This document shows, in pieces, positions 23,388-57,046 of a stretch of 59,894 nucleotides of DNA; within the stretch, counting starts at the first letter, position 1; each line of letters begins with the position of its first letter. The stretch is from positions 1 to 59,894 of the forward strand of contig JBAYLH010000007.1 in the NCBI GenBank assembly GCA_041664165.1. Direction: 5' to 3'. Made by a program: the position numbers and the translations under genes. Source of the stretch: Candidatus Buchananbacteria bacterium (GTDB taxonomy: Bacteria; Patescibacteriota; Patescibacteriia; Buchananbacterales; UBA6539). Below the pieces are notes generated by a model. It was given only the letters and a program-made list of their open reading frames with translations. It was not told the DNA's origin and searched no databases.

Positions 23388-23390
23388 AAA

Positions 23391-24341: not shown

Positions 24342-24370
24342 TTGACAATGCCGGGCTTATCTGCTAAAAT
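24342..24370 (+). promoter_or_regulatory. Sigma70-like promoter of secG
   Basis: TTGACA-17 nt-TAAAAT with a TG extended -10. Confidence 0.7.
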
Positions 24371-24382
24371 CTATTTATTACT

Positions 24383-24592
24383 ATGATTATCGACCTCATC
24401 CAAATAATTTCCGCAATTTTACTTATAATTGCTATTCTCATCCAGAATAAAGGCACCGGCTTAGGTGCTGCTTTTGGCGGCTCCGGTAATGTTTACCGCA
24501 CCAAACGCGGTTTGGAAAAAAATCTTTTCATTGCCACCATCGTCCTAGCGGTCATTTTTTTAGCCACCGCTTTGGTTAATGTTATCTACTAA
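24383..24592 (+). CDS. secG: Preprotein translocase subunit SecG
   Basis: ILIQNKGTGLGAAFGG and RGLEK motifs, two TM helices. Confidence 0.95.
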   Translation: MIIDLIQIISAILLIIAILIQNKGTGLGAAFGGSGNVYRTKRGLEKNLFIATIVLAVIFLATALVNVIY

Positions 24593-24684
24593 ACTCTCCC
24601 CCTCAACTGAATTTTTGTCCTCGCTAAAATAAAGGGTATTACACCCTTTTTGCCTCACTCGCTCTAAAATACAAAAATATAATT

Positions 24685-26712
24685 TTGTATTTTACTCGCT
24701 CTGTTCGGCAATTAACAAAACTTTTTGTGTTAGAAAAACTTTCTCTACTCAAAAAAATCAAAAAGGAAAAACCAATTATAACGGAAAATCAGCTCTTAAA
24801 CCAAAAAACCGAACCGACGACTGGCTTGATTTCACAAAAAGACCTAGACAAAAAACTGGTTTATTCTTTGAATAGCAAAAAAATCCCCAGTCTAAAGCAG
24901 CTTAAATATCTAAGCCATGTTTTAGACCAAAAACAACTGCTGACTTTCCGGGGACTGGCGGCTTTAATTATTGCCTGCCTGATTTTTATTGCTGCCAGCT
25001 TTTATTTTCAAAATTTCCGGCCAATACCGGCTTTCGGCGGCGAATATACCGAAGGCTTAATCGGCGCCCCGCAATATATTAATCCGATTCTTTCCCAAAC
25101 CAACGACGTTGATTCCGATATTTCCCGCCTGATTTTTTCCGGCTTGATGAAATTCGACCGGGAACTTAACTTAGTGCCGGATTTGGCGGAAAAATGGGAA
25201 GTCAGCACTGACCAAAAAAATTATACTTTTGTTTTAAAAGATAATCTCAAATGGCACGACGGCGAACCGCTGACTATCGATGATGTCATTTTTACTTTTC
25301 AAAGCATCCAGGATCAGGATTTCAAAAGTCCGCTTCTAATCAGCTTGCGCGGCGTGGAAATTGAAAAAGTTGACGACAAAACCGTTAAATTTATCCTGCC
25401 CGAACCTTACTCGGCGTTTTTGGAAATAATGGCCACTGGCATTTTGCCGGAGCACCTTTGGGGTGAAATTTCGCCGATCAACGCCAACTTGACCGAGTAC
25501 AACTTAAAACCCGTCGGCAGCGGGCCCTGGAAATTCAAATCGCTAGCCAAGGATAAATTGGGAAACATCAAATCTTATGTTTTGATTCCTAGCCCGGATT
25601 ATTACGGCAAAAAGCCTTATTTAGAAAAAATCACTTTCAAATTTTATCCGGATTTCGAAACCGGAATTGCCGCTTTGAAAAGCCATTCGACTGACGGCAT
25701 CAGCTTTTTGCCGAAAGAAATGAAATCAAGCTTTACCAGCCAAAAAAACATCACTTACCATTCCTTTGATTTACCCCAATACACCGCGATTTTCTTTAAC
25801 TCAAAACAAAATGAAATTTTAAAGGATAAAAATGTCCGGCTGGCTTTGGCTTTAAGTATCGATAAATCAAAAATTTTAAGCGACTCGCTGCAGCAGGAAG
25901 GCGAAATCATCAACGGTCCTATTTTGCCTTTAAACGTCAAGCTCAGCCAAGACAAGGTAATCGGTTTTGACCCCGTCAAAGCCCAGGAAGTTCTTGACCA
26001 AAACGGCTGGATCAAAATCAATCCTTTGGATTACGATGCGTTTTTGAAAGACCAGGAAAACAAAAAAGCGGAGGCGGAAAAAAATAATACCGCCGAGTCT
26101 AGCACCACCACGCCGACAACGACCGAAGAAAATTTACCGGCGGAGCAAAAAGATCAAAATCCGCCGCCTTTCTACCGTAAAAATAAAGATGTAATTTTGG
26201 AACTGACCTTAACCACCGTCAACCAACCGGAAAATGTCAAAGACGCCGAAATAATCAGGGACTTCTGGCAGAATATCGGCGTTAAAGTTAATTTGCAAAT
26301 TTTAGACGGGGGAAAAATCATGCGCGAAATTATCAAACCGCGCAATTACGAAATCCTTTTGTTCGGCATTATCGTCGGCGCCAATTCCGACCCTTACCCA
26401 TTTTGGCATTCATCGCAGGTTTCCGATCCCGGCTTGAACTTGGCCGGCTTTGGCAATCGCGATGTTGATAAAATCCTCGAAGATGCCAAAAAAACCGATG
26501 ACCCCGACAAACAGGCTGAATTATACCAAAAGTTTGATCAAATCTTAGCCGCCGAAATTCCCGCTATCTTTTTATACAACCCGACTTATACTTACGCTTT
26601 GGATAAAAAAATCAAAGGCATTGATACCAAAAGAATTACGACTCCGTCGGATCGCTTCAATAATTTAGAAAATTGGTACATCAATACTAATAGAACCTGG
26701 CAGGGAAAATAA
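24685..26712 (+). CDS. Peptide/nickel ABC transporter substrate-binding protein (family 5), TM-anchored
   Basis: INPIL, LIFSGL, PDLAEKW, WHDGEPLTIDDVIFT and PVGSGPWKF motifs; start codon uncertain. Confidence 0.9.
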   Translation: MYFTRSVRQLTKLFVLEKLSLLKKIKKEKPIITENQLLNQKTEPTTGLISQKDLDKKLVYSLNSKKIPSLKQLKYLSHVLDQKQLLTFRGLAALIIACLIFIAASFYFQNFRPIPAFGGEYTEGLIGAPQYINPILSQTNDVDSDISRLIFSGLMKFDRELNLVPDLAEKWEVSTDQKNYTFVLKDNLKWHDGEPLTIDDVIFTFQSIQDQDFKSPLLISLRGVEIEKVDDKTVKFILPEPYSAFLEIMATGILPEHLWGEISPINANLTEYNLKPVGSGPWKFKSLAKDKLGNIKSYVLIPSPDYYGKKPYLEKITFKFYPDFETGIAALKSHSTDGISFLPKEMKSSFTSQKNITYHSFDLPQYTAIFFNSKQNEILKDKNVRLALALSIDKSKILSDSLQQEGEIINGPILPLNVKLSQDKVIGFDPVKAQEVLDQNGWIKINPLDYDAFLKDQENKKAEAEKNNTAESSTTTPTTTEENLPAEQKDQNPPPFYRKNKDVILELTLTTVNQPENVKDAEIIRDFWQNIGVKVNLQILDGGKIMREIIKPRNYEILLFGIIVGANSDPYPFWHSSQVSDPGLNLAGFGNRDVDKILEDAKKTDDPDKQAELYQKFDQILAAEIPAIFLYNPTYTYALDKKIKGIDTKRITTPSDRFNNLENWYINTNRTWQGK

Positions 26713-29265: not shown

Positions 29266-30513
29266 ATGAAAAAACTTTTACTCTGTTTGCCGCTTTTATT
29301 AACCTTGCTTGTTTCCGGCTGTCAAGCACCACCGATTGCCCAACCTAATGTTAACGACAACGGTGCTAATTTGGATTCAATTGGTAAAACCATTAAAGGT
29401 AATGATGAATTCGGCTTGAATTTATATACTAAATACAAGACCAAAGACGGCAATATTTTCTTTTCACCCTATAGCATCTCTTCGGCTTTGGCGATGACTT
29501 ACGAAGGCGCCAAAGGCCAAACCGCCGCTGAAATGCAGAAAGTTTTCGGCTTTTTAGCCGACCCGACCGATCGCCGGTCTTCTTTTGCTAAAATCTACAA
29601 CGATTTGAACGCAAAAAATGAAGATTACCAGCTTAACACAGCCAACGCTTTATGGGTGCAAAAAGATTTTCCATTTTTAGCTGATTATCTTAACCTGGTT
29701 GAAAAATATTACGGTGGCAAAGCAACCAATTTGGATTTTATAAATCAAACCGAACAGTCCCGACAGACAATTAACCAATGGGTGGAAAAAAAGACTAATA
29801 ACAAGATTCAAAACCTCCTGCCCCAAGGCAGTGTTTCTGGTGACACCAGGCTGATTTTAACCAATGCCGTTTATTTCAAAGGAACCTGGCTTTTCCCGTT
29901 TGAAAAAAGCAGCACTCAAAAAAAAGATTTTCAGCTAACACCAACCAATACCGTTACTGTCGATATGATGCAACTATACGGCAAAAAATTTAAGTATAGC
30001 GAGACTAATAAACTCCAAGCCTTAGAAATACCATACAAGGGTGATAAAATTTCCATGCTAATTCTATTGCCAAAAAATAACGATTTGGCGTATCTGGAAA
30101 ATAACCTCAACTTGAAAAATTTAAATGAGTGGAAAACCAGCATGAACTCAGAAAAAGTCACAGTTTTTTTACCTAAATATAAATTTGATACAAAATATGA
30201 TATGGCCCAAGATTTAACTCAATTAGGCATGCCAACCGCTTTCAATTGTTCACTCGCTGATTTCTCCGGCATGACCGGCAAAACTGACTTATGTATTGAC
30301 CAGGTCATTCATAAAGCCTTTATTGAAGTTGATGAACAGGGAACTGAAGCCGCGGCGGCTACGGCGGTTATCATGAAGACTAGCATGGCTGGTCCGACTC
30401 AACCAGAAAAAATCTACTTTTTTAATGCTGATCATCCATTTATCTTCTTAATTCAAGACAAACAAAGCGGCAATATCTTATTTTTAGGCCGAGTCAGCGA
30501 CCCGACCAAATAA
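29266..30513 (+). CDS. Serpin-family protease inhibitor, probable lipoprotein
   Basis: NIFFSPYSISSALAMTYEGAKGQT, hinge EQGTEAAAATAV, FNADHPFIFLI; lipobox LLVSGC. Confidence 0.95.
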   Translation: MKKLLLCLPLLLTLLVSGCQAPPIAQPNVNDNGANLDSIGKTIKGNDEFGLNLYTKYKTKDGNIFFSPYSISSALAMTYEGAKGQTAAEMQKVFGFLADPTDRRSSFAKIYNDLNAKNEDYQLNTANALWVQKDFPFLADYLNLVEKYYGGKATNLDFINQTEQSRQTINQWVEKKTNNKIQNLLPQGSVSGDTRLILTNAVYFKGTWLFPFEKSSTQKKDFQLTPTNTVTVDMMQLYGKKFKYSETNKLQALEIPYKGDKISMLILLPKNNDLAYLENNLNLKNLNEWKTSMNSEKVTVFLPKYKFDTKYDMAQDLTQLGMPTAFNCSLADFSGMTGKTDLCIDQVIHKAFIEVDEQGTEAAAATAVIMKTSMAGPTQPEKIYFFNADHPFIFLIQDKQSGNILFLGRVSDPTK

Positions 30514-41347: not shown

Positions 41348-42922
41348 ATGAATAAAAAACTAACCATCATCGTCAAAAGCCTAATCAAAGCCAGGGTAAA
41401 CTCCCGGGCTAATCTTTTGAATCTTAAACGCCAGCTGTCCAACCGGCAAAAAATCGCGCCGCCGCTAAACTCCGATTTATTCAGGATTTACCGTCAGCTT
41501 TTAAAAAAGAAAGCGATTAAACCAAACCCAGCTTTGGAAACTTTTTTTCGCAAACGGGAAATCCGAACATTATCCGGCGTGGCTCCCATTACCGTTTTGA
41601 CCAAACCCTATCCTTGTCCGGGTCATTGCATCTATTGCCCCGATGAACCCGGCATGCCGAAAAGCTATCTTTCCAACGAACCGGCCGCGGCCCGAGCCAA
41701 AGGCACTAAATTTGACCCGTTCAAGCAAGTCAAGGTTCGCCTCAAAGCTTTGGCCAATAACGGCCATTCAACCGACAAAGTCGAGCTGATTGTTTTGGGC
41801 GGCAGCTGGACGGCTTACCCAAAAAATTACCAGACTTGGTTTATCAAAAAATGTTTTGACGCCTTAAACGGCAAAAGCGCGAAAACTTTGGCCGCCGCCC
41901 AGAAATTAAACGAAACGGCGAAACACCGCTGCGTCGGCTTGACTTTGGAAACCCGGCCGGATTTAATTGATACCGAAGAAATCAAGCGAATGCGCAAACT
42001 CGGCTGCACCCGCCTTGAATTGGGCGTTCAGAGTATTTATGATCCTATCTTAAAACTAAACAAAAGAGGCCAGACTGTCAAACAAACAATCGAGGCCACC
42101 AAATTGCTCAAGCAGTCCGGTTTCAAAGTGATGTACCATTTGATGCCGAATTTGCCCGGCAGCAGCCCGGCTTTGGATTTGAAGATGTTTAAACGGCTTT
42201 TTTCCGATTCCGACTTCCAGCCGGATCTGCTGAAAATTTATCCCTGCATTGTTACCAAAAATTCCGTTTTATGCCGCTGGTACCGGCAAAAAAAGTTTCG
42301 ACCCTATTCTGACAAACAATTGAAAGACTTGCTGATTAAAATTAAAAAAACTGTCCCGAGCTACGTCCGAATTACCCGGTTAATCCGCGATATTCCGGCC
42401 GAAAGCATTGTTGCCGGCAACAAGATTACCAATCTTCGCCAGATTATTGCCAATGATTTCAAAGGCTGCAAATGCATCCGCTGCCGCGAAGCCGGACACC
42501 AAAAAAGTTCAGGGTTTTCCGCCAAAGGCGGAAAAGTTAAAAGTTTAAAGCTATTTACTAAAAAATACCAAGCATCGGAAGGTATTGAATATTTTTTGAG
42601 TTATGAGTCAAAAAACCGGAAAATTCTTTATGCTTTTTTGCGCTTGAGGATAAACGATAATGCCAACGAAAACTTTATCGACGAATTAAAAGGCGCGGCA
42701 ATTATCCGCGAGCTGCATACCTACGGCGAACTGGCGCCATTAGGCCAGGCCGGAAAAGTCCAGCACTTAGGTTTGGGTAAAAAATTGATTTTTGAGGCTG
42801 AAAAAATTGCTAGAAAAAATAAGCTAAAAAGGATCGCCGTCATTTCCGGAATTGGCGTTCGGCAATATTACCAAAAATTAAGCTATAAACTGGAAGGAAC
42901 TTACCTGGTTAAAATCTTATAA
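41348..42922 (+). CDS. elp3: Elp3-like radical SAM tRNA uridine(34) acetyltransferase
   Basis: CPGHCIYCP, LETRPD, ELGVQS, IRELHTYG and QHLGLGK (GNAT) motifs. Confidence 0.93.
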   Translation: MNKKLTIIVKSLIKARVNSRANLLNLKRQLSNRQKIAPPLNSDLFRIYRQLLKKKAIKPNPALETFFRKREIRTLSGVAPITVLTKPYPCPGHCIYCPDEPGMPKSYLSNEPAAARAKGTKFDPFKQVKVRLKALANNGHSTDKVELIVLGGSWTAYPKNYQTWFIKKCFDALNGKSAKTLAAAQKLNETAKHRCVGLTLETRPDLIDTEEIKRMRKLGCTRLELGVQSIYDPILKLNKRGQTVKQTIEATKLLKQSGFKVMYHLMPNLPGSSPALDLKMFKRLFSDSDFQPDLLKIYPCIVTKNSVLCRWYRQKKFRPYSDKQLKDLLIKIKKTVPSYVRITRLIRDIPAESIVAGNKITNLRQIIANDFKGCKCIRCREAGHQKSSGFSAKGGKVKSLKLFTKKYQASEGIEYFLSYESKNRKILYAFLRLRINDNANENFIDELKGAAIIRELHTYGELAPLGQAGKVQHLGLGKKLIFEAEKIARKNKLKRIAVISGIGVRQYYQKLSYKLEGTYLVKIL

Positions 42923-44090: not shown

Positions 44091-45344
44091 ATGATCTACG
44101 AACAACTCCCCAAACAAGACCCCCAAATTGCCGACTTGGTCCGAAAAGAAATCGGCCGACAGCAAAATGGCTTAGTCATGATTGCTTCGGAAAACCACGC
44201 TTCGGTGGCGGTTTTAGAAGCGATGGCCACGGTTTTATCCAATAAATATTCCGAAGGCTACCCCAATAAACGCTATTACACCGGCAACCAATTCATTGAC
44301 CAGGTAGAACAATTGGCCATTGACCGGGCGAAAACTCTATTCAACGCCGAGCACGCCAATGTCCAGCCGAACGCCGGCAGTCCGGCTAATTTGGCCATTT
44401 ACCTGGCCACGCTCAAACCCGGCGACAAAGTCATGGGCATGAAGCTTGACCAGGGCGGCCATTTGACCCACGGCCATCCGGTCAACCTCTCCGGCCAGCT
44501 TTATAACTTCGTTCAATACGGCGTCAAAAAAGATACGGAACTAATTGACATGGATGAAATCCGGGAACAGGCGTTAAGAGAAAAACCAAAAATGATTGTT
44601 ACCGGCGCCACGGCTTATCCCCGTATTTTTGATTTCAAAGCCTTCCGTGAAATCTGCGATGAAATCGGCGCCACGCTGCTCGCTGACATTTCCCATTTTG
44701 TCGGACTTTGCATTTCCGGCGATCACCCTCACCCGTTTCCGTATGCGGATTTTGTCATGACCACGACTCATAAGACTTTGCGCGGTCCGCGCAGCGCCAT
44801 AATTTTGTGCAAAGAAAATTACGCCAAAGCCATTGACAAAGCGATTTTCCCCGGCATGCAAGGCGGGCCGCTAGAACATATCATTGCCGCCAAGGCTGTC
44901 TGTTTTGCCGAAGCTTCCACGCCTGAGTTCAAAATTTACGCTTCGCAAATTGCCAAAAACGCCAAAGCCTTAGCCGCGGTTTTGATGGCCGAAGGCATTA
45001 GGTTAGTCTCCGGCGGCACGGATAATCATTTAATGCTAATTGACTGCGGGCCGCTAAAAATTACCGGCCGGCTCGGCTCCGAAGCTTTAGCGGCCGGCGG
45101 CATCTACACTAACCGCAACACGATTCCTTATGATCCGGGTTCGGCCTTTGAACCGTCCGGCATTCGAATCGGCACGCCGGCGGTAACCACCCGCGGGATG
45201 AAAGAACCGCAGATGGAAATTATCGGCAAAATTATCGCCAAAGTTTTAAAAAATCCAACCAGCGACGAAACAATCAAAGAACTGAAAAATACGGTTACTC
45301 AGCTGACCGAAGAATTTCCCGTGTACGAAGGAATGACAATTTAA
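44091..45344 (+). CDS. glyA: Serine hydroxymethyltransferase
   Basis: MIASEN, YSEGYP, GGHLTHG, TTTHKTLRGPR and GIRIGTPA motifs. Confidence 0.98.
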   Translation: MIYEQLPKQDPQIADLVRKEIGRQQNGLVMIASENHASVAVLEAMATVLSNKYSEGYPNKRYYTGNQFIDQVEQLAIDRAKTLFNAEHANVQPNAGSPANLAIYLATLKPGDKVMGMKLDQGGHLTHGHPVNLSGQLYNFVQYGVKKDTELIDMDEIREQALREKPKMIVTGATAYPRIFDFKAFREICDEIGATLLADISHFVGLCISGDHPHPFPYADFVMTTTHKTLRGPRSAIILCKENYAKAIDKAIFPGMQGGPLEHIIAAKAVCFAEASTPEFKIYASQIAKNAKALAAVLMAEGIRLVSGGTDNHLMLIDCGPLKITGRLGSEALAAGGIYTNRNTIPYDPGSAFEPSGIRIGTPAVTTRGMKEPQMEIIGKIIAKVLKNPTSDETIKELKNTVTQLTEEFPVYEGMTI

Positions 45345-45380: not shown

Positions 45381-45441
45381 CTTATCTTGCTTATCTCGCT
45401 TATCTCGCTTATCTTGCTTATCTCGCTTACCACTTATCTTG
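45381..45441 (+). repeat. 9-bp tandem repeat (CTTATCTYG)n between glyA and folD
   Basis: About six copies visible. Confidence 0.85.
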
Positions 45442-45446
45442 TTTAC

Positions 45447-46292
45447 ATGCCTGCTCAAATAATCGACGGCAAAACCATTGCCGAAAATATCCTACTAGAC
45501 TTAAAGACCAAAATTACTGGCCTAAAACGCCAGCCTGGCTTAGCCGTGATTTTAGTCGGCGACGATCCGGCTTCGCATCTTTACGTCAAAAACAAAAAGA
45601 AAGCCGCCCAAAAAATCGGCGTGGTTTTTAATGATTACTACTGCGGCCAGAAATGCTGCCCCCAGGCCACGGCTAAAGAGGTTTTGGAAATGATTGATTT
45701 TTTAAATAATGATCAAGCTATCGACGGCATCATTGTCCAGCTGCCTTTGCCCAAAAATTTTGACCGAGAAAAAATTATTAACCAAATTTCACCGGCCAAA
45801 GACGTTGACGGTTTCCATTCACAAAACCAAAAAGATTATTTAGCCGACCAAAGCCCGATTACGCCGCCGTTAATTGGCGCCGTTAATGAAGCGCTGAAAG
45901 CCACCGGCCAAAATTTAGCCGGCAAAAATGCCGTCATTGTCGCTAAGGGCGAAATTTTTGCCGAAGCTCTAAAAAAAGATTTGGAAAACCAAGGTTTAAA
46001 AGTTAAAATCAGCAAACCCGACCGCGCCCTGGCTGGCCTGACCAAACAAGCGGATGTCTTAGTTGTTATTTTGGGCCAGAAAAAATTCATCACCAAAAAT
46101 ATGGTCAAGCCGGAGGCAATTATCATCGACATCGGCACTAATTTAATTGGTGAAAATAAATTTGTCGGCGACGCTAGTCCTGAGGTCGCCGAAGTAGCGG
46201 GTTTTCTCACGCCGGTGCCGGGCGGCATTGGCCCGCTGACAGTCGCGATGCTTTTAAAAAATGTTTACGAACTGGCAAAAAATAATCAATAG
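45447..46292 (+). CDS. folD: Bifunctional methylenetetrahydrofolate dehydrogenase/cyclohydrolase
   Basis: IIDGK, LAVILVG, GIIVQLPLP, KDVDG and TPVPGGIGPLTVAML motifs; ATG at 45447. Confidence 0.96.
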   Translation: MPAQIIDGKTIAENILLDLKTKITGLKRQPGLAVILVGDDPASHLYVKNKKKAAQKIGVVFNDYYCGQKCCPQATAKEVLEMIDFLNNDQAIDGIIVQLPLPKNFDREKIINQISPAKDVDGFHSQNQKDYLADQSPITPPLIGAVNEALKATGQNLAGKNAVIVAKGEIFAEALKKDLENQGLKVKISKPDRALAGLTKQADVLVVILGQKKFITKNMVKPEAIIIDIGTNLIGENKFVGDASPEVAEVAGFLTPVPGGIGPLTVAMLLKNVYELAKNNQ

Positions 46293-47292: not shown

Positions 47293-47754
47293 TCATTTTA
47301 CCATTTTAAACAGCAGCCAATTTTTGCCTTTCAGCTGAAACAAAACGTAATTGCCTTTCAGTTTTTTCCCCCTAAGCTCAAACTTCAAAGACTTGAGCGT
47401 AGATTCCAGCAACTTAAACTTGCCCTGATCCCAAATTTCCACTTTGCCCGCGCCATAATTGCCTTCGGGAATGATGCCGGAAAAATTAAGGTAACTGACC
47501 GGATGGTCTTCCACGGCCACGGCCAAATGTTTTATTTTCGGTACAACCGGTATCCCTTTCGGCACGGCCCAAGATTTTAAAACAATTTTTCCAAAGTCAA
47601 CTTCGGCGGGCAGCTCCAGCCGAAAATCATAATGCAAGTGGCTGGCCTGGTGTTTTTGAACGACAAAACGGTTTAAACTTTTAATTTTGGCCAAAGCTTT
47701 TGGCTCCGGCGTTTTAGTAAAATTTCTTTTCTTTTTATACTTTTGTAAAACCAT
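47293..47754 (-). CDS. Stand-alone LigD 3'-phosphoesterase domain protein
   Basis: YKKKRNFTKTPEP, FVVQKHQASHLHYDFRLE, LKSWAVPKG, EDHP and YGAGKVEIWD motifs. Confidence 0.92.
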   Translation of the reverse strand: MVLQKYKKKRNFTKTPEPKALAKIKSLNRFVVQKHQASHLHYDFRLELPAEVDFGKIVLKSWAVPKGIPVVPKIKHLAVAVEDHPVSYLNFSGIIPEGNYGAGKVEIWDQGKFKLLESTLKSLKFELRGKKLKGNYVLFQLKGKNWLLFKMVK

Positions 47755-48205: not shown

Positions 48206-48715
48206 GTCATTCTGAGTTCCGATCGCCGGCCGTGATGGCAGGTAGGCGACCAGAACGAAGAATCTCGACTCAATGAGACAAACCGAGATCCTTCGGCCTC
48301 CGGCCTCAGGATGACAATTCGGCGTATAGCTGTTTTAATTTCCAGGCTAAGCCTCAAGACAAGTCTCAGTCTCCAAGCTGTGTCGTCTAAAGACCAACAC
48401 TTGTGTTGACCGCTAATACTACAAAACAAGTTTTGTTCACCTCGCTTGACGCGAGTCGAAGCGGGCTCGCCTCGATTCGGCGAAGCGGGCTCGCCTCGCT
48501 TCGACTCGGAATCGACTCGGCGAAGCGGGCTCGCCTCGACTCAACCGCCCGCTTAACGTGAGTCGAAGCGGGTTCTCCGGGCTGCATCGCACTTGTGCTA
48601 CCAATCGGATAACCCCGCACTAAAACTTAGTATTTGTAACTGCTCGGCTTCGCCTCACAGACAAATACTAAAAAAAAGACCAGCTAAGCTCGTCTTAAAC
48701 GACAAGTAGCTGGTC
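48206..48715. repeat. Composite repeat element copy 1 (REP-like unit, GAAGCGGGCTCGCCTCG array, conserved hairpins/terminator)
   Basis: Shares 48393-48440 and 48627-48715 with the element at 51284-51938. Confidence 0.8.
48671..48715 (-). terminator. Intrinsic terminator after purC
   Basis: GACCAGCTA...TAGCTGGTC stem followed by T-run on the - strand; near-identical one at 51891-51938 after purH. Confidence 0.7.
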
Positions 48716-48797: not shown

Positions 48798-49733
48798 TTA
48801 GGCGACGAATTCTCGTCCCATAAGGTGACGATAAGCTTCGAGATAGGCTTTCCGCGTATTGCTGACAACTTCATCCGGAAGCCTCGGCGGCGGGGAATTT
48901 TTGTTCCAGCCAAACTGTGTCAACCAGTCGCGCAAATTTTGTTTATCCCAACTGACTGGCGACCTGCCAACCACGACTCCAGCGGCCGGCGAGAAACGCG
49001 ACGAATCCGGCGTGTGCACTTCGTCGATAAGAATCAGTTTCCCATCACGGGTGCGGCCGAATTCATACTTGGTGTCGAGGAGGCTGATACCGCGTCGCAA
49101 CGCCCAAAGGGCAGCGGCGGAATAAAGCATCAGGCTCCGCTCTCGAATAGCGACGGCAGTCCGCCGACCCAGAATTTCCACGGCTTTCCCAAATGAAACA
49201 TTCTCGTCGTGCAGACCCTGTCGTGCCTTAGTGGCTGGAGTGAAAATCGGCGGCTCAAGCGGACTGGCTAGTTGCAGGCCTTCGGGCAATTTAATCCCGC
49301 AGACCAAACCAGTCTTTTGGTAATCGGTCAAGGCCGAACCAAGCAAGTAGCCACGAACCACGCACTCCACTGGCAAGGCTTCGACCTTGCGTACCAATAT
49401 GCTTCGACCGGCCAAAATCTTGGCCAGCGACTTGAGCGTGGGACGAAGCTTCACAATCTCATCCCACACTCCGGAAATCAGATGGGTCGAAAGTCCCAGA
49501 CCTTGGGCAAACTGCAATCCCAAAAGCGAAAGGTCGGTCAAAATCTTGCCCTTGCCAGGGACTGCCGGAGTCTGGTTCCAATCGAAGGCCGATACTTCGT
49601 CGCTGGCAACCATCAATAGTATGCCGCCGCCGACTTCGACCATGACGCGAACCTTACCGACCTTATTGACCATTAAGCCCTGACTGACCAAGGCAGATCG
49701 AATAGCACTGCGAGTAACACCTGTTTCATTCAT
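48798..49733 (-). CDS. purC: SAICAR synthetase
   Basis: GKVR, SAFD, PGKG, VECVVRGY, FTPATKA, DTKYEFG and DEVHTPDSSRF motifs; SD AAAGGA before the ATG at 49733. Confidence 0.92.
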   Translation of the reverse strand: MNETGVTRSAIRSALVSQGLMVNKVGKVRVMVEVGGGILLMVASDEVSAFDWNQTPAVPGKGKILTDLSLLGLQFAQGLGLSTHLISGVWDEIVKLRPTLKSLAKILAGRSILVRKVEALPVECVVRGYLLGSALTDYQKTGLVCGIKLPEGLQLASPLEPPIFTPATKARQGLHDENVSFGKAVEILGRRTAVAIRERSLMLYSAAALWALRRGISLLDTKYEFGRTRDGKLILIDEVHTPDSSRFSPAAGVVVGRSPVSWDKQNLRDWLTQFGWNKNSPPPRLPDEVVSNTRKAYLEAYRHLMGREFVA

Positions 49734-49813
49734 GATAGTTCCTTTCATCTTTGAGTTTTGCCTGCCGGCGATCAAGTCTCACAATAGACATGAACCGGTT
49801 TTTAGCATCCACG

Positions 49814-51007
49814 TTAGATAATCCGGCCCGCTATCGGCGCACCGTTTTGGGCACACTCTACTGCCGCTTCAATGAAGCGCATACCTCTAACACCATTCTC
49901 AACACCGGCATAGTTTACTCCGGCGTGGATTGAGGGTAAACCGCGGTAATAGCGCCGGACATCGACTTCGAAAAAGTCATAGAGCCGACACCAGGCGTCA
50001 TGCAATCCTTCCGGATGACCACTGGGCCAATAAGTTTTGAGTAGCTCTCTTGGCACGGCTTTCAAAAATCCGTCATGGGCGCAGACATTGCCGCGCCAAT
50101 ATACCAGATCCGGTTTGTTAATCCGACAGACGGTCAGCTCTTCGGGTTTTTCCTGATCCCAAATGACACTACCTTTGTCGCCGTTGACTTCGAACTGCAA
50201 ATGGTTTTTATGACCCACCCGGACTTGCGACGCCCGGATATCAAATGGCGTTCCGTCAGCCAACTGGGCGCAGACCGTAAAGTCGTCATCGAGTCGGCGT
50301 TGACCAATCAAACTGGCTAGCCGGGCAAAGCTAATCTGACTGACAGGCAATCCGGTCACAAATTCCAGTTGCATCAGCGCGTGCGTACCGATGTCGCCGC
50401 CGCAGCCGCTCATACCGGCCTTAGCCGGATCGGTACGCCATTCGGCTTGCTGGTTTCCCATTTTTTCCAGTTGAGTTACTAGCCAATCTTGGTCGTATTC
50501 GGCCGTGGCTTTGATCACCCGGCCAATCAAACCTTGCTGGATAATGAACCGGGCAAAACGCGCGGTCCAATGGCCCCAATAGCCGTGCATCAACATGAAT
50601 GGCACCCCGGTCTTAACAACCGCCGCGGTCAATTCATCGGCTTCCGCCACAGTCATAGTCATCGGCTTTTCGCAGACGACCGGAATTCCAGCTTTCACAA
50701 ACGCCATTGCCTGTTCAAAATGACAGAAGTTTGGCGTCGTGATGACCGCGAAATCAATCCGGTCATTTGCCGGCAAGCCTTGCTGGTGAGCCAGCATCTC
50801 CTGCCAACTGGCATAGCCGTGCAGTGGATAGCGCCACTGCTTAGCCGCCGCCAGAGCAGTCTCCGGATCCTGGTGCAAGGCGGCATAAACTACCCGGCGC
50901 GTCCCCGACATGAAAATCGCGGCTTCATGGTGGGACGCAATAAAGGCCTGATGACCGCCAACCACACCAGCCTGAAGAACTTGATTCCTTCCGACTTTTT
51001 TCTTCAT
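49814..51007 (-). CDS. Gfo/Idh/MocA-family oxidoreductase
   Basis: ITTPNFCH, VVCEKPM, GCGGDIGTHA and GHPEG motifs; ATG at 51007 chosen. Confidence 0.9.
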   Translation of the reverse strand: MKKKVGRNQVLQAGVVGGHQAFIASHHEAAIFMSGTRRVVYAALHQDPETALAAAKQWRYPLHGYASWQEMLAHQQGLPANDRIDFAVITTPNFCHFEQAMAFVKAGIPVVCEKPMTMTVAEADELTAAVVKTGVPFMLMHGYWGHWTARFARFIIQQGLIGRVIKATAEYDQDWLVTQLEKMGNQQAEWRTDPAKAGMSGCGGDIGTHALMQLEFVTGLPVSQISFARLASLIGQRRLDDDFTVCAQLADGTPFDIRASQVRVGHKNHLQFEVNGDKGSVIWDQEKPEELTVCRINKPDLVYWRGNVCAHDGFLKAVPRELLKTYWPSGHPEGLHDAWCRLYDFFEVDVRRYYRGLPSIHAGVNYAGVENGVRGMRFIEAAVECAQNGAPIAGRII

Positions 51008-51283
51008 CGCTTTTCTCCCTCTCAACTAGGTTAGCCCAAATCTCAAAACAGAAAGTCTGTTCAGCTATACTCTAACAGTAGAGATAATTAACTCTTCTAC
51101 TGAATTGATGTCAAAAAACAAAGCCTTTCCTTGCCCCGCCGTCGCCCCAAGCTTATCAAGCGGCAAAAGCGAGCCTCTAAAAAAGACCCGAAACCGGTTT
51201 TAAATTAGCAAAAAAACCGCTCAATGTCAAGGCAATTCGAAAATTTTTTGTCCCTTAAATACCCAAAAAATCAAAAATATTTT

Positions 51284-51938
51284 AATTTGTCATTCCACAC
51301 TGGTCTATTGATGACAGGCTTGAGGCGGAATCCAGGAGTCCTTTTTTGCCGCCCATGGCGACATAAGCCCAGGGCTACGCCTCATAACAAATCTCGGATT
51401 CCCAAGCCGCGCCGTCTGGCGGAGACCAACACTTGTGTTGGCCGCTAAAACTACAAAACAAGTTTTGTTCGCCTCGATTCGGCGAAGCGGGCTCGCCTCG
51501 ATTCCGATCGCTTCCGAGTCGAAGCGGGCTCGCCTCGATTCGGCGAAGCGGGCTCGCCTCGATTCCGATCGCTTCCGAGTCGGAGCGGGCTCGCCTCGCT
51601 TGACGCGAGTCGGAGCGGGCTCGCCTCGCTCGACGCGAGTCGGAGCGGGCTCTCCACTAGTCAAGTTAAGCTGCCGGACTAAAGTCCGGCCTGCGTGGAG
51701 AACCCAGCTTATCCCGCTCCAAGTTTGCGAACCGGCTTTAATTAATATTATCGTCTAGTTGGCGCAAAGATCGCCTTACCTGAAATAAACTCAATTATCG
51801 GCTGGTAAGATTAATAATCATGTTTAATTAGGAACTTGGTGCGGGATTAGTATTTGTAACTGCTCGGCTTCACCTCGCGGACAAATATTAAAAAAAAGAC
51901 CAGCTAAGCTCGTCTTATATTGACAAGTCTAACTGGTC
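51284..51938. repeat. Composite repeat element copy 2
   Basis: First ~220 bp nearly identical to 59573-59790; internal array of six (A/G)GCGGGCTC cores; right end shared with copy 1. Confidence 0.9.
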
Positions 51939-51967
51939 GAGATACTCCCTCCGCCTCTTGGCGAGGC

Positions 51968-53632
51968 TTAATGGCCGGCAAAACCGCGATCTTCCGGCGG
52001 CAAGTAAGCCACCGAAACGCCATTTTTCGAAAAGTACTCCTGCACTTTGGGCAGCTCTTTGCCGTCGGCCGGAACTACGCCGCCGACACAACCGGCTTGC
52101 ACCAAAAGTTCTGGACCTTCCAATGGTTCGCCCTCAAACCCGTGTTCAGCATACGGAAAGAAGGCATCGGAAGCAAAGACCGCACCGTTTGTATCGTGGC
52201 CGGAACGTCTGGCGCGATCCAGACAAAGCTGAACGCAGGCAATGCGATCCTGCTGGCCACAACCCAAACCGATAAGCATGCTATCTTTGGCTAAAGCAAC
52301 CGTGTTACTAGTAGCCCGCCAAGTTATTACCTGTGCCAATAAAAGATTGCCTAGCTGAACAGAAACGAACTGCTCCTCTGTTGTCCGCCAAGTGATATCA
52401 AGGCTGCTCTGGTCGAAAATAAACCACGGCGCTTTCTGCTGGAGCCAGCCGCTAGGAACCGGCCGCCGCATCCAAACTTCCGACGACATCGGCGGATCAA
52501 GTAATACTGGATTGGAAAACAACCGGCGCTTCTCCCGCTTGCCGAGCAATTCAATACTGGTGGCTGAAAACTCGGGAGCAAAAATCACGTCTAACCCCCA
52601 ATTCTTCCGCCCCACCAAGTTAACCAGATCTTTCGGCACGGCAAAAATCGCCGTACCCAATTCATCGGTAATTTCAAAGTTGGTTACCAGCTCGCCGCCC
52701 ATGCACGCGATCGGATCGCCGAGCAAAGCATTCTGCAAAGCCACGTACGGATATTTCCAATCAAATGCCGCACCGCACGGATTGCCGTGTTTACAAATCA
52801 CGGCGATATAAGGCACCGTGCCGTGGAAGTTACGGCGAAATGACTCAGCCAAAAACCGCAGGATGCTGATGGCTTTATCACCATCAGCAAAGCTAATGTA
52901 GCTGGGATTGCCAGAAACAACGGAAAACCTGGCTAACGCCAGCGGATCATGCGGTCTCGGCGACAGGTTTCCATACAGATACGCCGGATTCTGGTCACGA
53001 TTTTCCCCATAAGCCACCTCACGCAACCGTTGACCAACCACACCATCAAATTCGCCACCACTGTGAAAACGGGCGGCGTCAAGGCAATAACCAGACACGA
53101 TCGCTTCGGCCTTAGCCCGCAGGTATTGACGGGTTTTTGCGTCAACGTCGCCAATGGTCTTGAGCGACTCAGTAACCAAGGCTCGGTCTTCGGGATCACA
53201 AATAACGATCCGACCGCCTTTGGCTGCCGACCGAACCATGGTTGGTCCGCCGATATCAGTCTGTTCCACGACAGCGTCAACCGTTACACCCGCTTTGGCG
53301 ATTTCCTCGGCGAGCGGATAGAAATCACAGCAGACCATCTCAATCCGGGGAATGTTCAGTCTGGCCAGTTCGTCTCGGTCTTCCTGACAATCACGGGCCA
53401 AAAGGCCGGCGTGAACTTCACGCGATAAAGTCACTACCCGGTGACCCAAAATCGCACCGCCGCCGACCAGATCGGCCACGTCTTTGACTTCCAGTCCAGC
53501 CTCACGCAAATGGCGACAAGTACCACCTGAAGCCAGAAGATGCCAGCCCAAACCAACTAGCTTTTGGGCAAACCCGGTAATACCGTCCTTACTGTAGACG
53601 CTTAATAGCGCCCATTTATCTGTTTCACTCAT
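51968..53632 (-). CDS. purH: Bifunctional AICAR transformylase/IMP cyclohydrolase
   Basis: ALLSV, SGGT, DIGGPTMVRSAAK, YGENRDQ, KHGNPCG, GQQDRI and ASDAFFP motifs. Confidence 0.92.
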   Translation of the reverse strand: MSETDKWALLSVYSKDGITGFAQKLVGLGWHLLASGGTCRHLREAGLEVKDVADLVGGGAILGHRVVTLSREVHAGLLARDCQEDRDELARLNIPRIEMVCCDFYPLAEEIAKAGVTVDAVVEQTDIGGPTMVRSAAKGGRIVICDPEDRALVTESLKTIGDVDAKTRQYLRAKAEAIVSGYCLDAARFHSGGEFDGVVGQRLREVAYGENRDQNPAYLYGNLSPRPHDPLALARFSVVSGNPSYISFADGDKAISILRFLAESFRRNFHGTVPYIAVICKHGNPCGAAFDWKYPYVALQNALLGDPIACMGGELVTNFEITDELGTAIFAVPKDLVNLVGRKNWGLDVIFAPEFSATSIELLGKREKRRLFSNPVLLDPPMSSEVWMRRPVPSGWLQQKAPWFIFDQSSLDITWRTTEEQFVSVQLGNLLLAQVITWRATSNTVALAKDSMLIGLGCGQQDRIACVQLCLDRARRSGHDTNGAVFASDAFFPYAEHGFEGEPLEGPELLVQAGCVGGVVPADGKELPKVQEYFSKNGVSVAYLPPEDRGFAGH

Positions 53633-53670
53633 CGCTTCCTTCTCCTTTTTCTTGCTCCTGCATTAGGAGC

Positions 53671-54168
53671 TTAGGGTTGTTCTTCTTTAGCGCCACAACC
53701 AGCACACTGATCAGCAGACGCTTCTTCAAGCATTGCCACTATCAGACCATCGGCATGTTGCAAAACCTCTTCGGTTACTAAGATTTGACAACCAACCACC
53801 CGAAGGGCTACAGCGATTGCATCACCGGGCCGGCAGTCAATCCGAGTTAAGGTTTCCTTTTCCGGTTCCGAATAAATAAGCTGGCCGATAAAGGTGCCAT
53901 CTACTAATTCGGAGATAAGAACTTCGGCTCTAGTCGAACTCCCGACCATTGTTTTGGCAACCAGGTCATGTATTAGCGGCCGAGGCGGCTTATTACAATC
54001 CAACGCCAGACGAATGGCAGTGGCTTCGAATCGGTTTACAACAAGAACCAAATCCGTTTCACCACTTGCCATCGTAACCAAAAAACGGCCGCTATCCTCA
54101 ATTACCCCGACACCGGAGATTCTGGCAGTGTAATAGGTAATCCCATCTCTAGTCACTCTCATCTTCAT
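53671..54168 (-). CDS. Bifunctional nuclease (DUF151/BFN) family protein
   Basis: EATAI, PRPLIHDL, DGTFIG and IDCRPGDAIAVALR motifs; SD GGAAAGGAG before the ATG at 54168. Confidence 0.85.
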   Translation of the reverse strand: MKMRVTRDGITYYTARISGVGVIEDSGRFLVTMASGETDLVLVVNRFEATAIRLALDCNKPPRPLIHDLVAKTMVGSSTRAEVLISELVDGTFIGQLIYSEPEKETLTRIDCRPGDAIAVALRVVGCQILVTEEVLQHADGLIVAMLEEASADQCAGCGAKEEQP

Positions 54169-54178
54169 CGCTCCTTTC

Positions 54179-55657
54179 CTATTCCCCTGCTTCCCACCAG
54201 AGGGTTTTTTCCGCTTCCGCTTGCGCAATCTTGACTGCGTCGCCGACATAGAGTTGCGGGTTACGCAGCAATTCCTTAGTACTGACCGGAACTTTCTTCC
54301 AGGCTCGCCTAATGGCTTTATTTTCTTTCTGACCGACCAATGAGTCCATCGCCATTCCCAAGTCCTGATTCGTCAAACGCGCTAACGGCACCACGGTCCG
54401 GTTGACAAACTCGTGAGCGCCGATAAAGCCCTGCTGTTGCAAAGACAAATAGAGCAGCTCAGCCATTACGACATTAGCATCGACGGCAAAATTTTGCCGA
54501 CAACGTTCAGAGTCAATCACCAGACTCTTCAAAATCCGCAGCGTGGTTAACATCTGTTCATACGTGTAGACCATAACTTCGGAATAACCCCGCATCACGC
54601 AAGACCATCGTAGATCACGCTGCAAATCACAAACCAAAGTCAGCAGCAGCCGATTGAAAGCGGCAATGACAATAACGTGCATGCCGGCGTCATTTTCGGC
54701 CGCAATCGGATTAGTCATCTTGTGCGCCATCGTCGAAGAGGACGAAGACGCCGAAGTCAATTCGCCGCACATTGACGATTGCAGAATTCTGACATCTTCA
54801 CCCAGGTTAGCCATCGCACCGGAAAGCAAAACCATTTCGCTGTAACAGCGATAGGCACCTTCCGGCGGCGTGATCTGGGTTGTAATGGCCGCTTGCGGCA
54901 AGCCAAGCAAATCCAGCATCATTTTTTCGGCATTGACATCGCCAAACAGCTCCCGCTGCGCGGCAAAACTGCCAACCGCACCGGAAACCTTACCCGGCAC
55001 TTCATGAGCATACCGGCCGGCTTGCCGCGCCGTCAGGACAAATCGGCTATGCAGATTCGCCAGCCAAAAACCGACAGTTACCGGCAAGGCGGTCTGTAAA
55101 TGAGTCCGACCGGCGCAAACCACTTCGGCATTTTCGGCAATCCTTTGCCGCCAGAGCTCATCAACTTCGCAAAGCTTCGGCCAGAAAACCAGATCGTAGG
55201 TCTTGGCAATTTGCAACGCGTATGCCGTGTTAATAATGTCATACGACGTCGCGCCAAAGTGCAGCCAACGTTGCAGTTCCGGCGGCAGATACTTCCGCAT
55301 CAGCCGCAGTAAAGCCAGGATGTCGTGGTTGGTTTTGTTCAGCGCCTGCTTTTCTTCGTAGTCCTGCATCGTCGTCGTGATACTGAAAAGCAATTTCTGT
55401 AACCGACGAACCGTCAGGTACTTAGCATGCTGTTTCGGCATAACACCAATTTTGGCCAAAGTCAAAAGCCAAAACCATTCGACAATGACGAGCCAGCCAG
55501 CCCACTGATCGTAGCCGAGGTAAGGCCGTAAATCATTGGGTTGGTAGCGGGGATCACCAGGCATCTGTAAATTCAGATTGCCTTTTTTCCTTTCAACAGC
55601 GGTCAAAGCATCCAAAGCTTCGGTCAGCCATTTTTTACCATCAGTCAATGCAATCAT
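54179..55657 (-). CDS. purB: Adenylosuccinate lyase-like protein (fumarase/ASL superfamily), divergent
   Basis: LHFGATSYDI, GRTHLQ, GKVSGAVG, TTQI and SSTMAHKMTNPI signatures. Confidence 0.82.
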   Translation of the reverse strand: MIALTDGKKWLTEALDALTAVERKKGNLNLQMPGDPRYQPNDLRPYLGYDQWAGWLVIVEWFWLLTLAKIGVMPKQHAKYLTVRRLQKLLFSITTTMQDYEEKQALNKTNHDILALLRLMRKYLPPELQRWLHFGATSYDIINTAYALQIAKTYDLVFWPKLCEVDELWRQRIAENAEVVCAGRTHLQTALPVTVGFWLANLHSRFVLTARQAGRYAHEVPGKVSGAVGSFAAQRELFGDVNAEKMMLDLLGLPQAAITTQITPPEGAYRCYSEMVLLSGAMANLGEDVRILQSSMCGELTSASSSSSTMAHKMTNPIAAENDAGMHVIVIAAFNRLLLTLVCDLQRDLRWSCVMRGYSEVMVYTYEQMLTTLRILKSLVIDSERCRQNFAVDANVVMAELLYLSLQQQGFIGAHEFVNRTVVPLARLTNQDLGMAMDSLVGQKENKAIRRAWKKVPVSTKELLRNPQLYVGDAVKIAQAEAEKTLWWEAGE

Positions 55658-55996
55658 GATCTTTCTCCTCTACCCTCAGTTTCTATCCCAAACTTCATCC
55701 AAATTCAAAATGTCAAAAAACAAAGTCCCTCCTTGCCTCGTCGTAACCACAAGTTTACCAAGTAACAGAGGCGGGCAGGGACTTGCAAGTGCCTTTAAAT
55801 TAACAAAAAATCACCCTTAATGTCAAGGTAAATTTTTTAGGCTGATAACCCTAAAACTTAATTCAAAAATAAGGATTCTCAGCTGCTTGTTTCCCCCGGC
55901 TGGGACATTTTTCCATCGGCGATTGAAAAAAATTCTCCTCCCTGCTAAACTAACCTTGCCTCCTGAATTTATAATTCATAATCTATAATTTCACTC

Positions 55997-57046
55997 ATGT
56001 CTTTCTCCATTGGCATCGTCGGCCTGCCCAACGTCGGCAAAAGCACCCTCTTCAAGGCTTTAACCAAAAAACAAGTTGATATCGCTAATTACCCCTTTTG
56101 CACCATCGCGCCCAACGTTGGCGTGGTTACCGTACCGGACGAGCGCTTGGATCAACTGTCAAAATTATCCAATTCCGCTAAAACCGTTTACACTACCGTC
56201 GAATTCGTTGATATCGCCGGCTTGGTCAAAGACGCCCACAAAGGCCAGGGTTTAGGCAACCAATTTTTAGCCCACATCCGGGAAGTTGACGCCATTGCCC
56301 AAGTCTTGAGAGAATTTTCGGATCATAACGTCATTCATGTTGATGGCAAAGTCGATCCGGAGTCGGACAAAGAAACTATTAATTTGGAATTAATTTTTGC
56401 CGATTTACAGACGGTTGACAAAAGAATTTCCAAAAACCACAAAGACTTGCGCGCCAATTTAAAAGAGGCCAAAGAACTTCAGTCGGTTTTGGCTAAACTA
56501 AAAACCGGACTGGAAGCCGGCCATTTGGCGAATGAAATTATTACCGAGGAAAAAGAAAAATTAATGGCTCGCGAATTGAATTTATTGACGATGAAACCGA
56601 TGCTTTATGTTTTGAACGTTGACGAAGATAAGGTCGTAGACGATTCCGATTACATTACGACCTCGGCTAAAATTGAAGCTGAGCTGTCCGAACTTTCGCC
56701 AGAGGAAGCCGCAGAATACCTCAAAGAGTTAAAATTAAATTCCTCGGGCTTAGACCGCCTGATTAAAAAATCTTACGAAACTTTGGATTTGATTACTTTT
56801 TTAACCACCGGCCCGACCGAATCGCGCGCTTGGACGATCAAAAAAGGGACGAAAGCGCCCCAGGCCGCCGGCGTCATTCATACTGATTTTGAAAGCCATT
56901 TTATCCGCGCCGAAATCATCAACTGGCAGGACTTGCTCAAAGCCGGCAGCGAAGCCAAGGCTAAAGAGCTTGGTTTGGTTCGGATTGAAGGCAAAGACTA
57001 CGTCATGCAAGACGGCGATACCGTCTATTTCCGAACCGATGTCTAG
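55997..57046 (+). CDS. ychF: Redox-regulated ATPase YchF
   Basis: GIVGLPNVGKST, NYPFCTIAPN, DIAGL, GLGNQFL and EGKDYVMQDGD motifs. Confidence 0.98.
   Translation: MSFSIGIVGLPNVGKSTLFKALTKKQVDIANYPFCTIAPNVGVVTVPDERLDQLSKLSNSAKTVYTTVEFVDIAGLVKDAHKGQGLGNQFLAHIREVDAIAQVLREFSDHNVIHVDGKVDPESDKETINLELIFADLQTVDKRISKNHKDLRANLKEAKELQSVLAKLKTGLEAGHLANEIITEEKEKLMARELNLLTMKPMLYVLNVDEDKVVDDSDYITTSAKIEAELSELSPEEAAEYLKELKLNSSGLDRLIKKSYETLDLITFLTTGPTESRAWTIKKGTKAPQAAGVIHTDFESHFIRAEIINWQDLLKAGSEAKAKELGLVRIEGKDYVMQDGDTVYFRTDV

Follow-up and report, generated by a model that had tools for sequence, protein, structure and literature searches.

Layout of the late purine locus

We analyzed a block of late purine biosynthesis (pur) genes in the genome of a Candidatus Buchananbacteria bacterium (assembly GCA_041664165.1, hereafter G000; 1.205 Mb in 32 contigs, 95% complete, 0.17% contamination). 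The window, i.e. the whole stretch of DNA analyzed, is the entire contig C7 of this assembly (JBAYLH010000007.1, 59,894 nt). Its minus strand carries purC, a gene for an oxidoreductase of the Gfo/Idh/MocA family (gfo, product GFO), a purH-like gene, a gene with a bifunctional nuclease domain (BFN gene, bfn) and a purB-like gene (Table 1). An initial annotation made from the letters of the sequence had grouped these five genes into two sets, purB-bfn-purH and gfo-purC, and their coordinates, strand and tight spacing were all verified. Thirty-eight nucleotides separate gfo from purC, and again bfn from purH; purB and bfn abut, the likely start of bfn being the ATG at 54168, past the purB stop. 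A gap of 940 nt lies between gfo and purH. This spacing fits two operons. The glyA-folD pair, described initially as lying about 3 kb away, is indeed close, with 2.5 kb between the end of folD and purC. In agreement with the statement that the window has no purE, purK or early pur genes, a Pfam scan of its 32 other large open reading frames (ORFs) detected no additional pur gene.

An Rfam search of the window at gathering thresholds returned a single tRNA and neither a ZTP nor a purine riboswitch, so that a riboswitch ahead of the pur operons was dropped as a candidate. Scans for promoter and terminator consensus sequences returned fewer sites than in shuffled sequence, and therefore bring no backing for the operon boundaries.

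Table 1. Features of the late purine slot and its borders (positions in the window).
Feature	Position	Strand	Evidence or remark
glyA, serine hydroxymethyltransferase; left border of the slot	44091..45344	+	PF00464 501 bits, NF000586 581 bits
folD, methylene-tetrahydrofolate dehydrogenase/cyclohydrolase	45387..46292	+	THF_DHG_CYH domains; best NCBIfam match FolD 239 bits, under cut-off
Array of GC-rich dispersed tandem repeats, immediately downstream of purC	48469..48532	-	whole-genome pattern search
purC, stand-alone long-type SAICAR synthetase without PurE domain	48798..49775	-	NF010568 317.6 bits
gfo, Gfo/Idh/MocA NAD(P) oxidoreductase, "type A"; upstream of purC, co-oriented	49814..51025	-	Pfam
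GC-rich tandem repeat array in the gfo-purH gap	51471..51652	-	units of 24, 30 and 37 nt
Short hairpin then T run right after the purH stop; possible terminator of purB-bfn-purH (weak)	51890..51920	-	direct reading; unlisted by the consensus scan
purH-like, AICAR formyltransferase/IMP cyclohydrolase, Patescibacteria type	51968..53632	-	PF02142 and PF01808
BFN-domain gene between purB and purH	53671..54168 (ORF open to 54249)	-	PF02577 79 bits
purB-like, adenylosuccinate/SAICAR lyase, divergent	54179..55657	-	Lyase_1 88 bits
ychF, right border of the slot	55997..57046	+	TIGR00092 435 bits

A canonical PurC next to divergent PurH and PurB

The purC product (325 aa) is a canonical long-type enzyme: it exceeds the equivalog cut-off of NF010568 (251 bits) and scores 193 bits against SAICAR_synt (PF01259). 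Its residues 39-323 align to the Mycobacterium PurC of PDB 3r9r (234 bits) with the same end point, and PDB 6yvq is matched at 234 bits as well. No remnant of a PurE domain was found downstream of PurC by tblastn.

The PurH-like protein combines in one chain an MGS domain (PF02142, residues 18-131) and an AICARFT_IMPCHas domain (PF01808, residues 142-472), and aligns to human ATIC (PDB 1p4r) across residues 7-475 with 179 bits. It remains below the NCBIfam cut-offs, with 274 bits against the 402 needed for NF002049 and 267 against 528 for TIGR00355. We aligned it with MAFFT to 10 relatives from the order and 119 database homologues (130 sequences). All 130 have the transformylase-site K-H pair, and 127 to 128 of them the cyclohydrolase-site Tyr, Asp and Lys. 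The cyclohydrolase motif of this protein reads GHRVVTLSR, where ATIC has GGRVKTLHP.

The PurB-like protein is likewise under its equivalog cut-offs (191 bits vs 326 for TIGR00928, 140 bits vs 446 for NF006764), and the 10 best of its 42 PDB matches are adenylosuccinate lyases, the top one being 1dof. It keeps the HD, TH.Q and SS..M.HK motifs. In the alignment with 1dof these appear as HD, GRTH.Q and SSSTMAHKMTNP, the last with one residue inserted and a Pro to Ala change relative to the fumarate-lyase signature SS..M.HK.NP. We take the HD, GRTH.Q and signature motifs to hold the catalytic His and residues typical of the fumarate-lyase superfamily. The assignment is accompanied by gene context, as purB is linked to purC and purH here and in most of the corresponding loci of relatives described below. 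Judged from these scores and alignments, PurH and PurB are divergent, Patescibacteria-type lineages in which the catalytic residues examined are kept, except for one substitution in PurH that is clade-wide. The sequence divergence claimed initially for the block was thus right for PurH and PurB, and wrong for PurC.

The product of the gene lying between purB and purH reaches 79 bits against PF02577, for a cut-off of 27, and matches the TM0160 structures (PDB 1sj5 and 1vjl, E = 1.3e-8); it is a predicted member of the bifunctional nuclease family. GFO has three recognizable domains, the N-terminal Rossmann fold PF01408 (77 bits), PF22725 (73 bits) and PF02894 (53 bits). It reached no NCBIfam cut-off, the best model being levoglucosan dehydrogenase with 98 bits against the 650 required.

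The same slot holds variable pur genes in relatives

We examined a set of 31 genomes of the order, G000 included, and for synteny 17 loci fetched from 16 relatives (the purC of G007 being assigned to the slot from match coordinates). In 15 of the 17 loci, pur genes lie beside glyA-folD and/or ychF and in the same order as here, glyA-folD ... purC/purCE-purH-purB-ychF, folD being syntenic. The flanking genes are far better conserved than the pur genes they enclose: identity to the G000 copies is 63-80% for YchF and 50-83% for GlyA, against 30-59% for PurH, 24-51% for PurB and 23-46% for PurC. The slot also varies in type of gene. Its PurC may be fused to PurE, stand-alone of the long type, or of a very divergent type; its PurB either has an ADSL_C domain or is of the type seen here; and its PurH has either the canonical or the variant motif. 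A scan of the genome collection with YchF returned 80 loci, mostly from Clostridia with few members of the Candidate Phyla Radiation (CPR), and was not informative for synteny.

Gene content across the order was patchy. Matches were found for PurH in 15 of the 31 genomes, PurE in 12, PurC in 21, the PurS-PurL of G000 in 10 and PurA in 13, in many combinations. Wherever PurE occurred (12/12 genomes) it was fused to PurC or adjoined it, the two sharing one open frame in 7 of the 12. PurH was often seen without PurE: in the order this concerns 8 of the 15 genomes that have PurH, and in a sample of 151 class genomes at least 90% complete it concerns 12 of 22 (PurH 22, PurE 23, both 10). The near-complete genomes G022 (97%), G026 (97%) and G006 (99%) hold the late genes and PurA, and gave no match to the G000 PurS-PurL. 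One more arrangement was seen in G013, where a 240-aa protein (L024:5284-6006) beside PurB, PurE and PurC has the MGS-like (IMP cyclohydrolase) half of PurH only; the genome yielded no transformylase half.

Several slots hold damaged genes. PurH is reduced to a fragment in G023, where it carries a TAA, and in G030; G012 has its PurB broken into two ORFs, and the PurC of G011 is interrupted by a TAG. The PurA of G030 also carries a TAA. These remnants show that loss at the slot is under way.

The initial annotation had also stated that most CPR lack nucleotide biosynthesis, which is broadly right. Besides the 22 PurH-bearing genomes out of 151 in the class, two published figures point the same way: de novo synthesis of inosine monophosphate (IMP) is reported to be complete in 32.05% of 399 CPR metagenome-assembled genomes (PMC11608272), and a preprint gives 93% of the Patescibacteria genomes examined as being without de novo nucleotide synthesis (bioRxiv 10.64898/2026.06.21.733656). 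That preprint also describes nucleotide biosynthesis genes as phylogenetically scattered, and another paper describes CPR as often without complete nucleotide pathways (PMC8407418).

Origin of the block

Gene trees gave a placement for PurH and none for PurC. Over 100 full-length homologues of PurH were found; those with a name are mostly from Patescibacteria, Buchananbacteria or Parcubacteria, with one carrying the label Aenigmatarchaeota (DPANN). In a FastTree phylogeny of 129 rows, PurH clustered with its family relatives G018 and G020 within a Patescibacteria clade (support 86-92), and the 11 PurH sequences of the order required 8 label changes. The pattern, in a tree whose unnamed database rows may be close kin, fits what would be repeated exchange among Patescibacteria.

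For PurC, the closest database protein is 63% identical and the next ones 47-54%, every named one of the latter being from non-CPR bacteria. A metagenome scan with PurC gave 21 loci at 31-40% identity, except for one 81-residue segment at 67%, and no close relative. A quick maximum-likelihood tree of PurC was a polytomy, and in an approximately unbiased (AU) test the placement of PurC as sister to the fused PurC-PurE clade of the order was not rejected (p-AU 0.72), the constrained tree having the higher likelihood. An import of PurC from non-CPR bacteria is suggested by the database identities; the polytomy and the AU test give no decision on it, and PurC could possibly derive either from a fusion by loss of the PurE domain, or from an import together with gfo. 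The closest matches of GFO are 72% and 56% identical, followed at about 50% by proteins of Planctomycetes and Verrucomicrobia, so that the nearest named ones belong to the PVC (Planctomycetes-Verrucomicrobia-Chlamydiae) group. An orthologue-level match to GFO was found in only 1 of the 30 relatives of the order, at a different locus.

The pair gfo-purC is associated with repeats. The 940 nt separating gfo from purH hold no gene; a 119-aa ORF there (51305-51664) gave no Pfam or NCBIfam match and has the highest GC content (0.61) of 1037 ORFs. We considered this ORF as a hidden gene or a PurE remnant and rejected it, for it is a GC-rich tandem repeat that recurs at other loci and at contig ends. 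Besides the two arrays of Table 1, members of the repeat family lie in C7 at 21449-21488 and at the contig end (59784-59873), and elsewhere at C16:4-123 (contig start), C12:28872-28961, C15:22744-22856 and C6:34660-34699. Their units, of about 24, 30 and 37 nt, begin with GAGCCCGCT and are GC-rich within an AT-rich genome; 22 of the 23 pattern matches found genome-wide are on the same strand. Since arrays stand at two contig ends (C7 end, C16 start), they probably break the assembly. The two arrays of Table 1, having the same orientation, bracket the gfo-purC pair.

Could the 7-kb block have been imported recently as one unit from outside the lineage? The GC content of its genes (0.50-0.54) is above the genome mean of 0.429, and among the 1037 ORFs four of the five rank at the 94th-97th percentile, with bfn at the 91st; PurC and GFO find their closest named homologues in non-CPR bacteria, at about 50% identity; and there are the repeats around gfo-purC. 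GC content was nevertheless discarded as proof of foreign origin: glyA, about 80% identical to relatives and vertically inherited, has a GC content at third codon positions (GC3) of 0.571, at the 95th percentile, and with a native gene equally GC-rich, composition is uninformative on this point. Moreover, slot and gene order are common to 15 of the 17 loci of relatives, PurH groups with G018 and G020 inside the Patescibacteria clade, and the AU test permits PurC as sister to the fused clade of the order. We consider such an import highly improbable; if anything arrived later, it looks to be gfo, alone or together with purC. Of the horizontally acquired full pathway put forward initially, one element therefore survives, namely that early pur homologues do exist elsewhere in the genome (see below), and the idea of a recent foreign island is contradicted by the syntenic slot and by the PurH clade.

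Recurrent BFN and GFO neighbours

BFN genes were found in 6 of the 31 genomes, and in four of these six they lie in the pur slot: here, and beside PurC-PurE in G022, G029 and G030. A second, unrelated lineage of Pfam GFO-family proteins, of about 420 aa and hereafter called type B, occupies the slot in G029 (L022:8501-9769) and G023 (L025:10196-11452). The two copies share 50% identity, and over part of the length 24% with the GFO of the window; type B is present in 4 genomes, two of which have it in the slot. The recurrence is suggestive of a functional link; as the genomes are related and the numbers small, we take it as a lead only.

It also bears on the proposal that the pur paralogues, GFO and BFN together make a modified purine or nucleoside rather than IMP, in the manner of formycin and coformycin. 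These non-pur partners do recur, with GFO type A here, type B in the slots of G029 and G023, and BFN in four slots; ForH, a PurH paralogue of a nucleoside-antibiotic pathway, is among the PDB matches of PurH; and PurH and PurB are divergent. This divergence is, however, clade-wide, and the catalytic residues examined are kept except for a Val at the Lys66 position discussed below. PurC is a canonical equivalog, GFO and BFN are missing from most slots, and a Pfam scan of the slot revealed no further tailoring or export genes. The tight, conserved linkage to glyA-folD also suits ordinary IMP synthesis. A modified purine, for which nothing beyond the recurring BFN and GFO neighbours was found, is in our opinion barely credible.

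Early pur homologues elsewhere in the genome

A genome-wide inventory revealed early pur homologues on other contigs. On C6, a PurM-like gene (19927-21108) keeps the DGVGTK and GGETAE motifs, and all its PDB matches with E-values up to 0.01 are AIR (aminoimidazole ribonucleotide) synthetases. It is directly followed by a PurN-like frame (C6:21123-21850; L008:11124-11852), then come a 970-aa PurS-PurL fusion in an uninterrupted frame (22501-25413) and PurQ. A PurD-like gene is found on C11 (8811-10151) and a PurF-like gene on C4 (11492-12946; L010:1309-2763, minus strand). GuaB and GuaA are encoded on C18, and Apt and Prs are present in the genome. All late pur genes are uninterrupted open frames. 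In G029, the PurS-PurL fusion is 63% identical to that of G000 and the neighbouring PurM-like protein 31% over a partial match; no homologue of the PurN-like frame was detected beside the fusion.

The set is incomplete. As assembled, the genome does not encode each step to IMP by an intact gene: the homologues found are F-like (with Ser1), D-like, L/S/Q, M-like, C, B and H, whereas PurE, PurK and PurT were not found and the PurN-like frame is interrupted. The adjective "full" applied initially to the pathway has therefore to be withdrawn, PurA being missing from the inventory as well.

A proposed late-purine module of the lineage

Our preferred interpretation, to which we attach a probability of about 0.5, is that the block is the lineage's own late-purine module, standing in a conserved and swap-prone slot, with active PurC, PurB and PurH, and tied to the early pur genes located elsewhere. 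The gene identities, the synteny, the conserved motifs and the inventory on which it is built are observed.

For enzyme activity, metabolite flow and replacement history, we infer the following scheme. PurC, PurB and PurH would convert carboxyaminoimidazole ribonucleotide (CAIR) to its succinocarboxamide derivative (SAICAR), to aminoimidazole carboxamide ribonucleotide (AICAR), to its formyl derivative (FAICAR) and to IMP. PurC would consume aspartate and ATP, and PurH would use 10-formyl-tetrahydrofolate supplied by the adjacent GlyA and FolD. From IMP, GuaB and GuaA would give guanosine monophosphate. Adenosine monophosphate would be made from adenine by Apt, as PurA was not found. The late module would form part of de novo synthesis, with the early genes on C4, C11 and C6. 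It is a mosaic, in which a stand-alone PurC with GFO, bracketed by repeats, sits where relatives carry a PurC-PurE fusion, and in which a BFN gene has its place inside the purB-purH operon. The gap at the supply of CAIR may reflect steps that are unassembled or unrecognised, or else a pathway caught early in erosion.

Several observations weigh against this interpretation. The first is the lack of a CAIR-forming step. PurE gave no Pfam match in the whole genome, none by tblastn with 9 PurE-bearing proteins of relatives, and a best E-value of 0.24 when an HMM of the lineage's PurE was run over 11919 six-frame segments; gfo and the repeats occupy the syntenic place where relatives keep PurE. As the assembly is 95% complete, these searches do not prove that PurE is absent. 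Nor were PurK and PurT found in the genome, the sole match to their ATP-grasp family (PF02222) being Ddl, and PurA was not found there either. Second, the PurN-like frame has one in-frame TAA after the N-terminal 50 codons; it retains the N, H and D motifs of the active site. Logan contigs from X1 and X2, two groundwater metagenome runs that may both be sources of this DNA, show the TAA without any difference. Third, the early pur proteins as a group, the PurD-, PurM-, PurL- and PurQ-like ones among them, score under the curated NCBIfam cut-offs.

Fourth, the PurF-like protein begins with MSGIFG, having a Ser for the catalytic Cys1 of the canonical MCG; its Fe-S cysteines are kept. All four members of this subfamily in the order start with Ser (G000, G029, G019 and G018). 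By comparison, 7 canonical PurFs of the order begin with MCG or VCG, an eighth (G008) having a start that is not resolved. G019 gave no match to the PurH, PurC, PurE and PurA families, nor to the G000 PurS-PurL; because the PurF-like protein occurs there in the absence of other pur matches, its purine role is doubtful and it may not be a PurF.

Fifth, PurH is among the 113 of the 130 clade members that have a Val at the position of human ATIC Lys66, a residue with a catalytic role. The His that precedes the lost Lys in GHRVVTLSR may compensate. With Val in 113 sequences and K-H in all 130, we regard the variant motif, which is that of most PurH of the Patescibacteria type, as a conserved clade trait, not as decay.

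Salvage, erosion or a distinct route

The initial annotation had alternatively suggested a truncated route, in which the late module dispenses with the early pathway and draws on imidazole intermediates that are imported or scavenged. We judge it unlikely. As an example, and with no greater likelihood, aminoimidazole carboxamide (AICA) or its riboside would be turned into AICAR by Apt or a kinase and then into IMP by PurH, with PurC and PurB acting only when CAIR or SAICAR is given, and with BFN and GFO as accessories of scavenging. Apt and Prs are both present, and Apt may accept AICA. The proposal gains some weight from relatives: PurH without PurE is frequent (8/15 in the order, 12/22 in the class), the near-complete G022, G026 and G006 hold the late genes in addition to PurA and gave no match to the G000 PurS-PurL, and several nearly complete genomes hold PurC, PurB and PurH and gave no match either to that fusion or to the PurE family. 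It would also account for three early or middle steps that look compromised here (the Ser1 of the PurF-like protein, the stop in the PurN-like frame, no PurE) and for a BFN gene placed in the pur slot in 4 of its 6 occurrences. On the other hand, an intact PurS-PurL of 970 aa, PurQ and the PurM-like and PurD-like genes have been kept in G000, which would be superfluous for pure salvage, no imidazole-riboside transporter or kinase was identified, and the only known substrate of PurC is CAIR.

A second possibility, to which we give a similarly low chance, is an eroding relic: purine synthesis would be fading under relaxed selection in a host-dependent bacterium, the genes being still open and the pathway no longer working. 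The patchy presence of pur genes across the 31 genomes, in many combinations, is what erosion would leave, as are the remnants at the slot in G023, G030, G012 and G011 and the TAA in the PurA of G030. In G000 itself, PurE was not found and the stop interrupting the PurN-like frame is confirmed in contigs of two runs. This amounts, however, to a single stop codon across about 5,000 pur codons, and PurC, PurB, PurH, PurS-PurL, PurQ and the PurM-like and PurD-like proteins are full-length with catalytic motifs. A stand-alone purC maintained beside gfo likewise argues for continued use, against a relic.

Finally, in this and many related Patescibacteria the PurE-less module with its BFN nuclease and GFO partners might constitute a distinct pathway, either salvaging imidazole ribosides or the breakdown products of scavenged nucleic acids to IMP, or forming CAIR without PurE, an idea that we hold to be a long shot. 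The variant PurH motif and the Ser1 of the PurF-like protein would then belong to one and the same rewired purine metabolism, which seems just as far from probable.

Other genes of the window

The window contains further genes, at a distance from the purine block or between its borders. A very large ORF (27-9959, minus strand, 3310 aa), with a CBM_4_9 carbohydrate-binding domain as only Pfam match, probably encodes a surface protein. Two adjacent paralogues with a T4SS_pilin domain lie at 21527-23387 (minus strand). A full-length serpin (PF00079, 416 bits) is encoded at 29266-30513 (plus strand), in a bacterial genome of 1.2 Mb. A bacterial homologue of Elp3, a tRNA modification protein of the radical SAM/GNAT type (41348-42922, plus strand; TIGR01211, 562 bits), adjoins glyA in several relatives. 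Among the small unannotated ORFs between folD and purC, one (47293-47754, minus strand) codes for a stand-alone LigD 3'-phosphoesterase domain protein (PF13298).

Significance and comparison with known systems

The nucleotide supply of ultra-small Patescibacteria is a central question for their dependence on hosts. What looks like a purine island in such a genome can be the lineage's own cluster, in a conserved slot with swapped, trimmed and lost copies. Annotation by curated thresholds would err here in both directions, as it would miss PurH and PurB, and overcall completeness where PurE is not found, the PurN-like frame is broken and the PurF-like protein is atypical. The recurrent PurE-less configuration could reveal a salvage of imidazole intermediates or an unrecognised carboxylation step, or may simply document the stepwise loss of a pathway. 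Our literature search brought up neither a PurE-less late-purine module nor a BFN/GFO linkage in Patescibacteria, which is not proof that none is in print.

Compared with the canonical late genes purE-purC-purB-purH of E. coli and B. subtilis, the block has the same three families and the same predicted chemistry from CAIR to IMP, with folate genes linked to it. It differs in that PurE, PurK and PurA were not found, that PurH and PurB are under the cut-offs, and that GFO and BFN are interleaved. Fusions of PurC and PurE of the PAICS type (animal PAICS, PDB 4ja0) are held at this very slot by 7 relatives of the order, beside PurH and PurB, whereas the PurC of G000 stands alone with no PurE domain. 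The PurH-like protein is built of two domains like ATIC/PurH (human 1p4r, avian 1g8m, M. tuberculosis 3zzm) and shares their K-H pair and their Tyr, Asp and Lys; it differs by the GHRVVTLSR that stands in place of GGRVKTLHP. The formycin (For) and coformycin pathways are alike in having pur-family enzymes beside an oxidoreductase, and ForH is a weak PDB match; the genes studied here are, in contrast, syntenic and of housekeeping type in a 1.2-Mb genome, with no evidence of a secondary-metabolite cluster.

The displacement of genes in situ by xenologues, which leads to mosaic operons, is an established concept. The slot resembles it, as PurC, PurB and PurH are each represented at this one place by two or more lineages. 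The replacement here appears to have gone beyond a swap of equivalents and to have removed a step, that of PurE.

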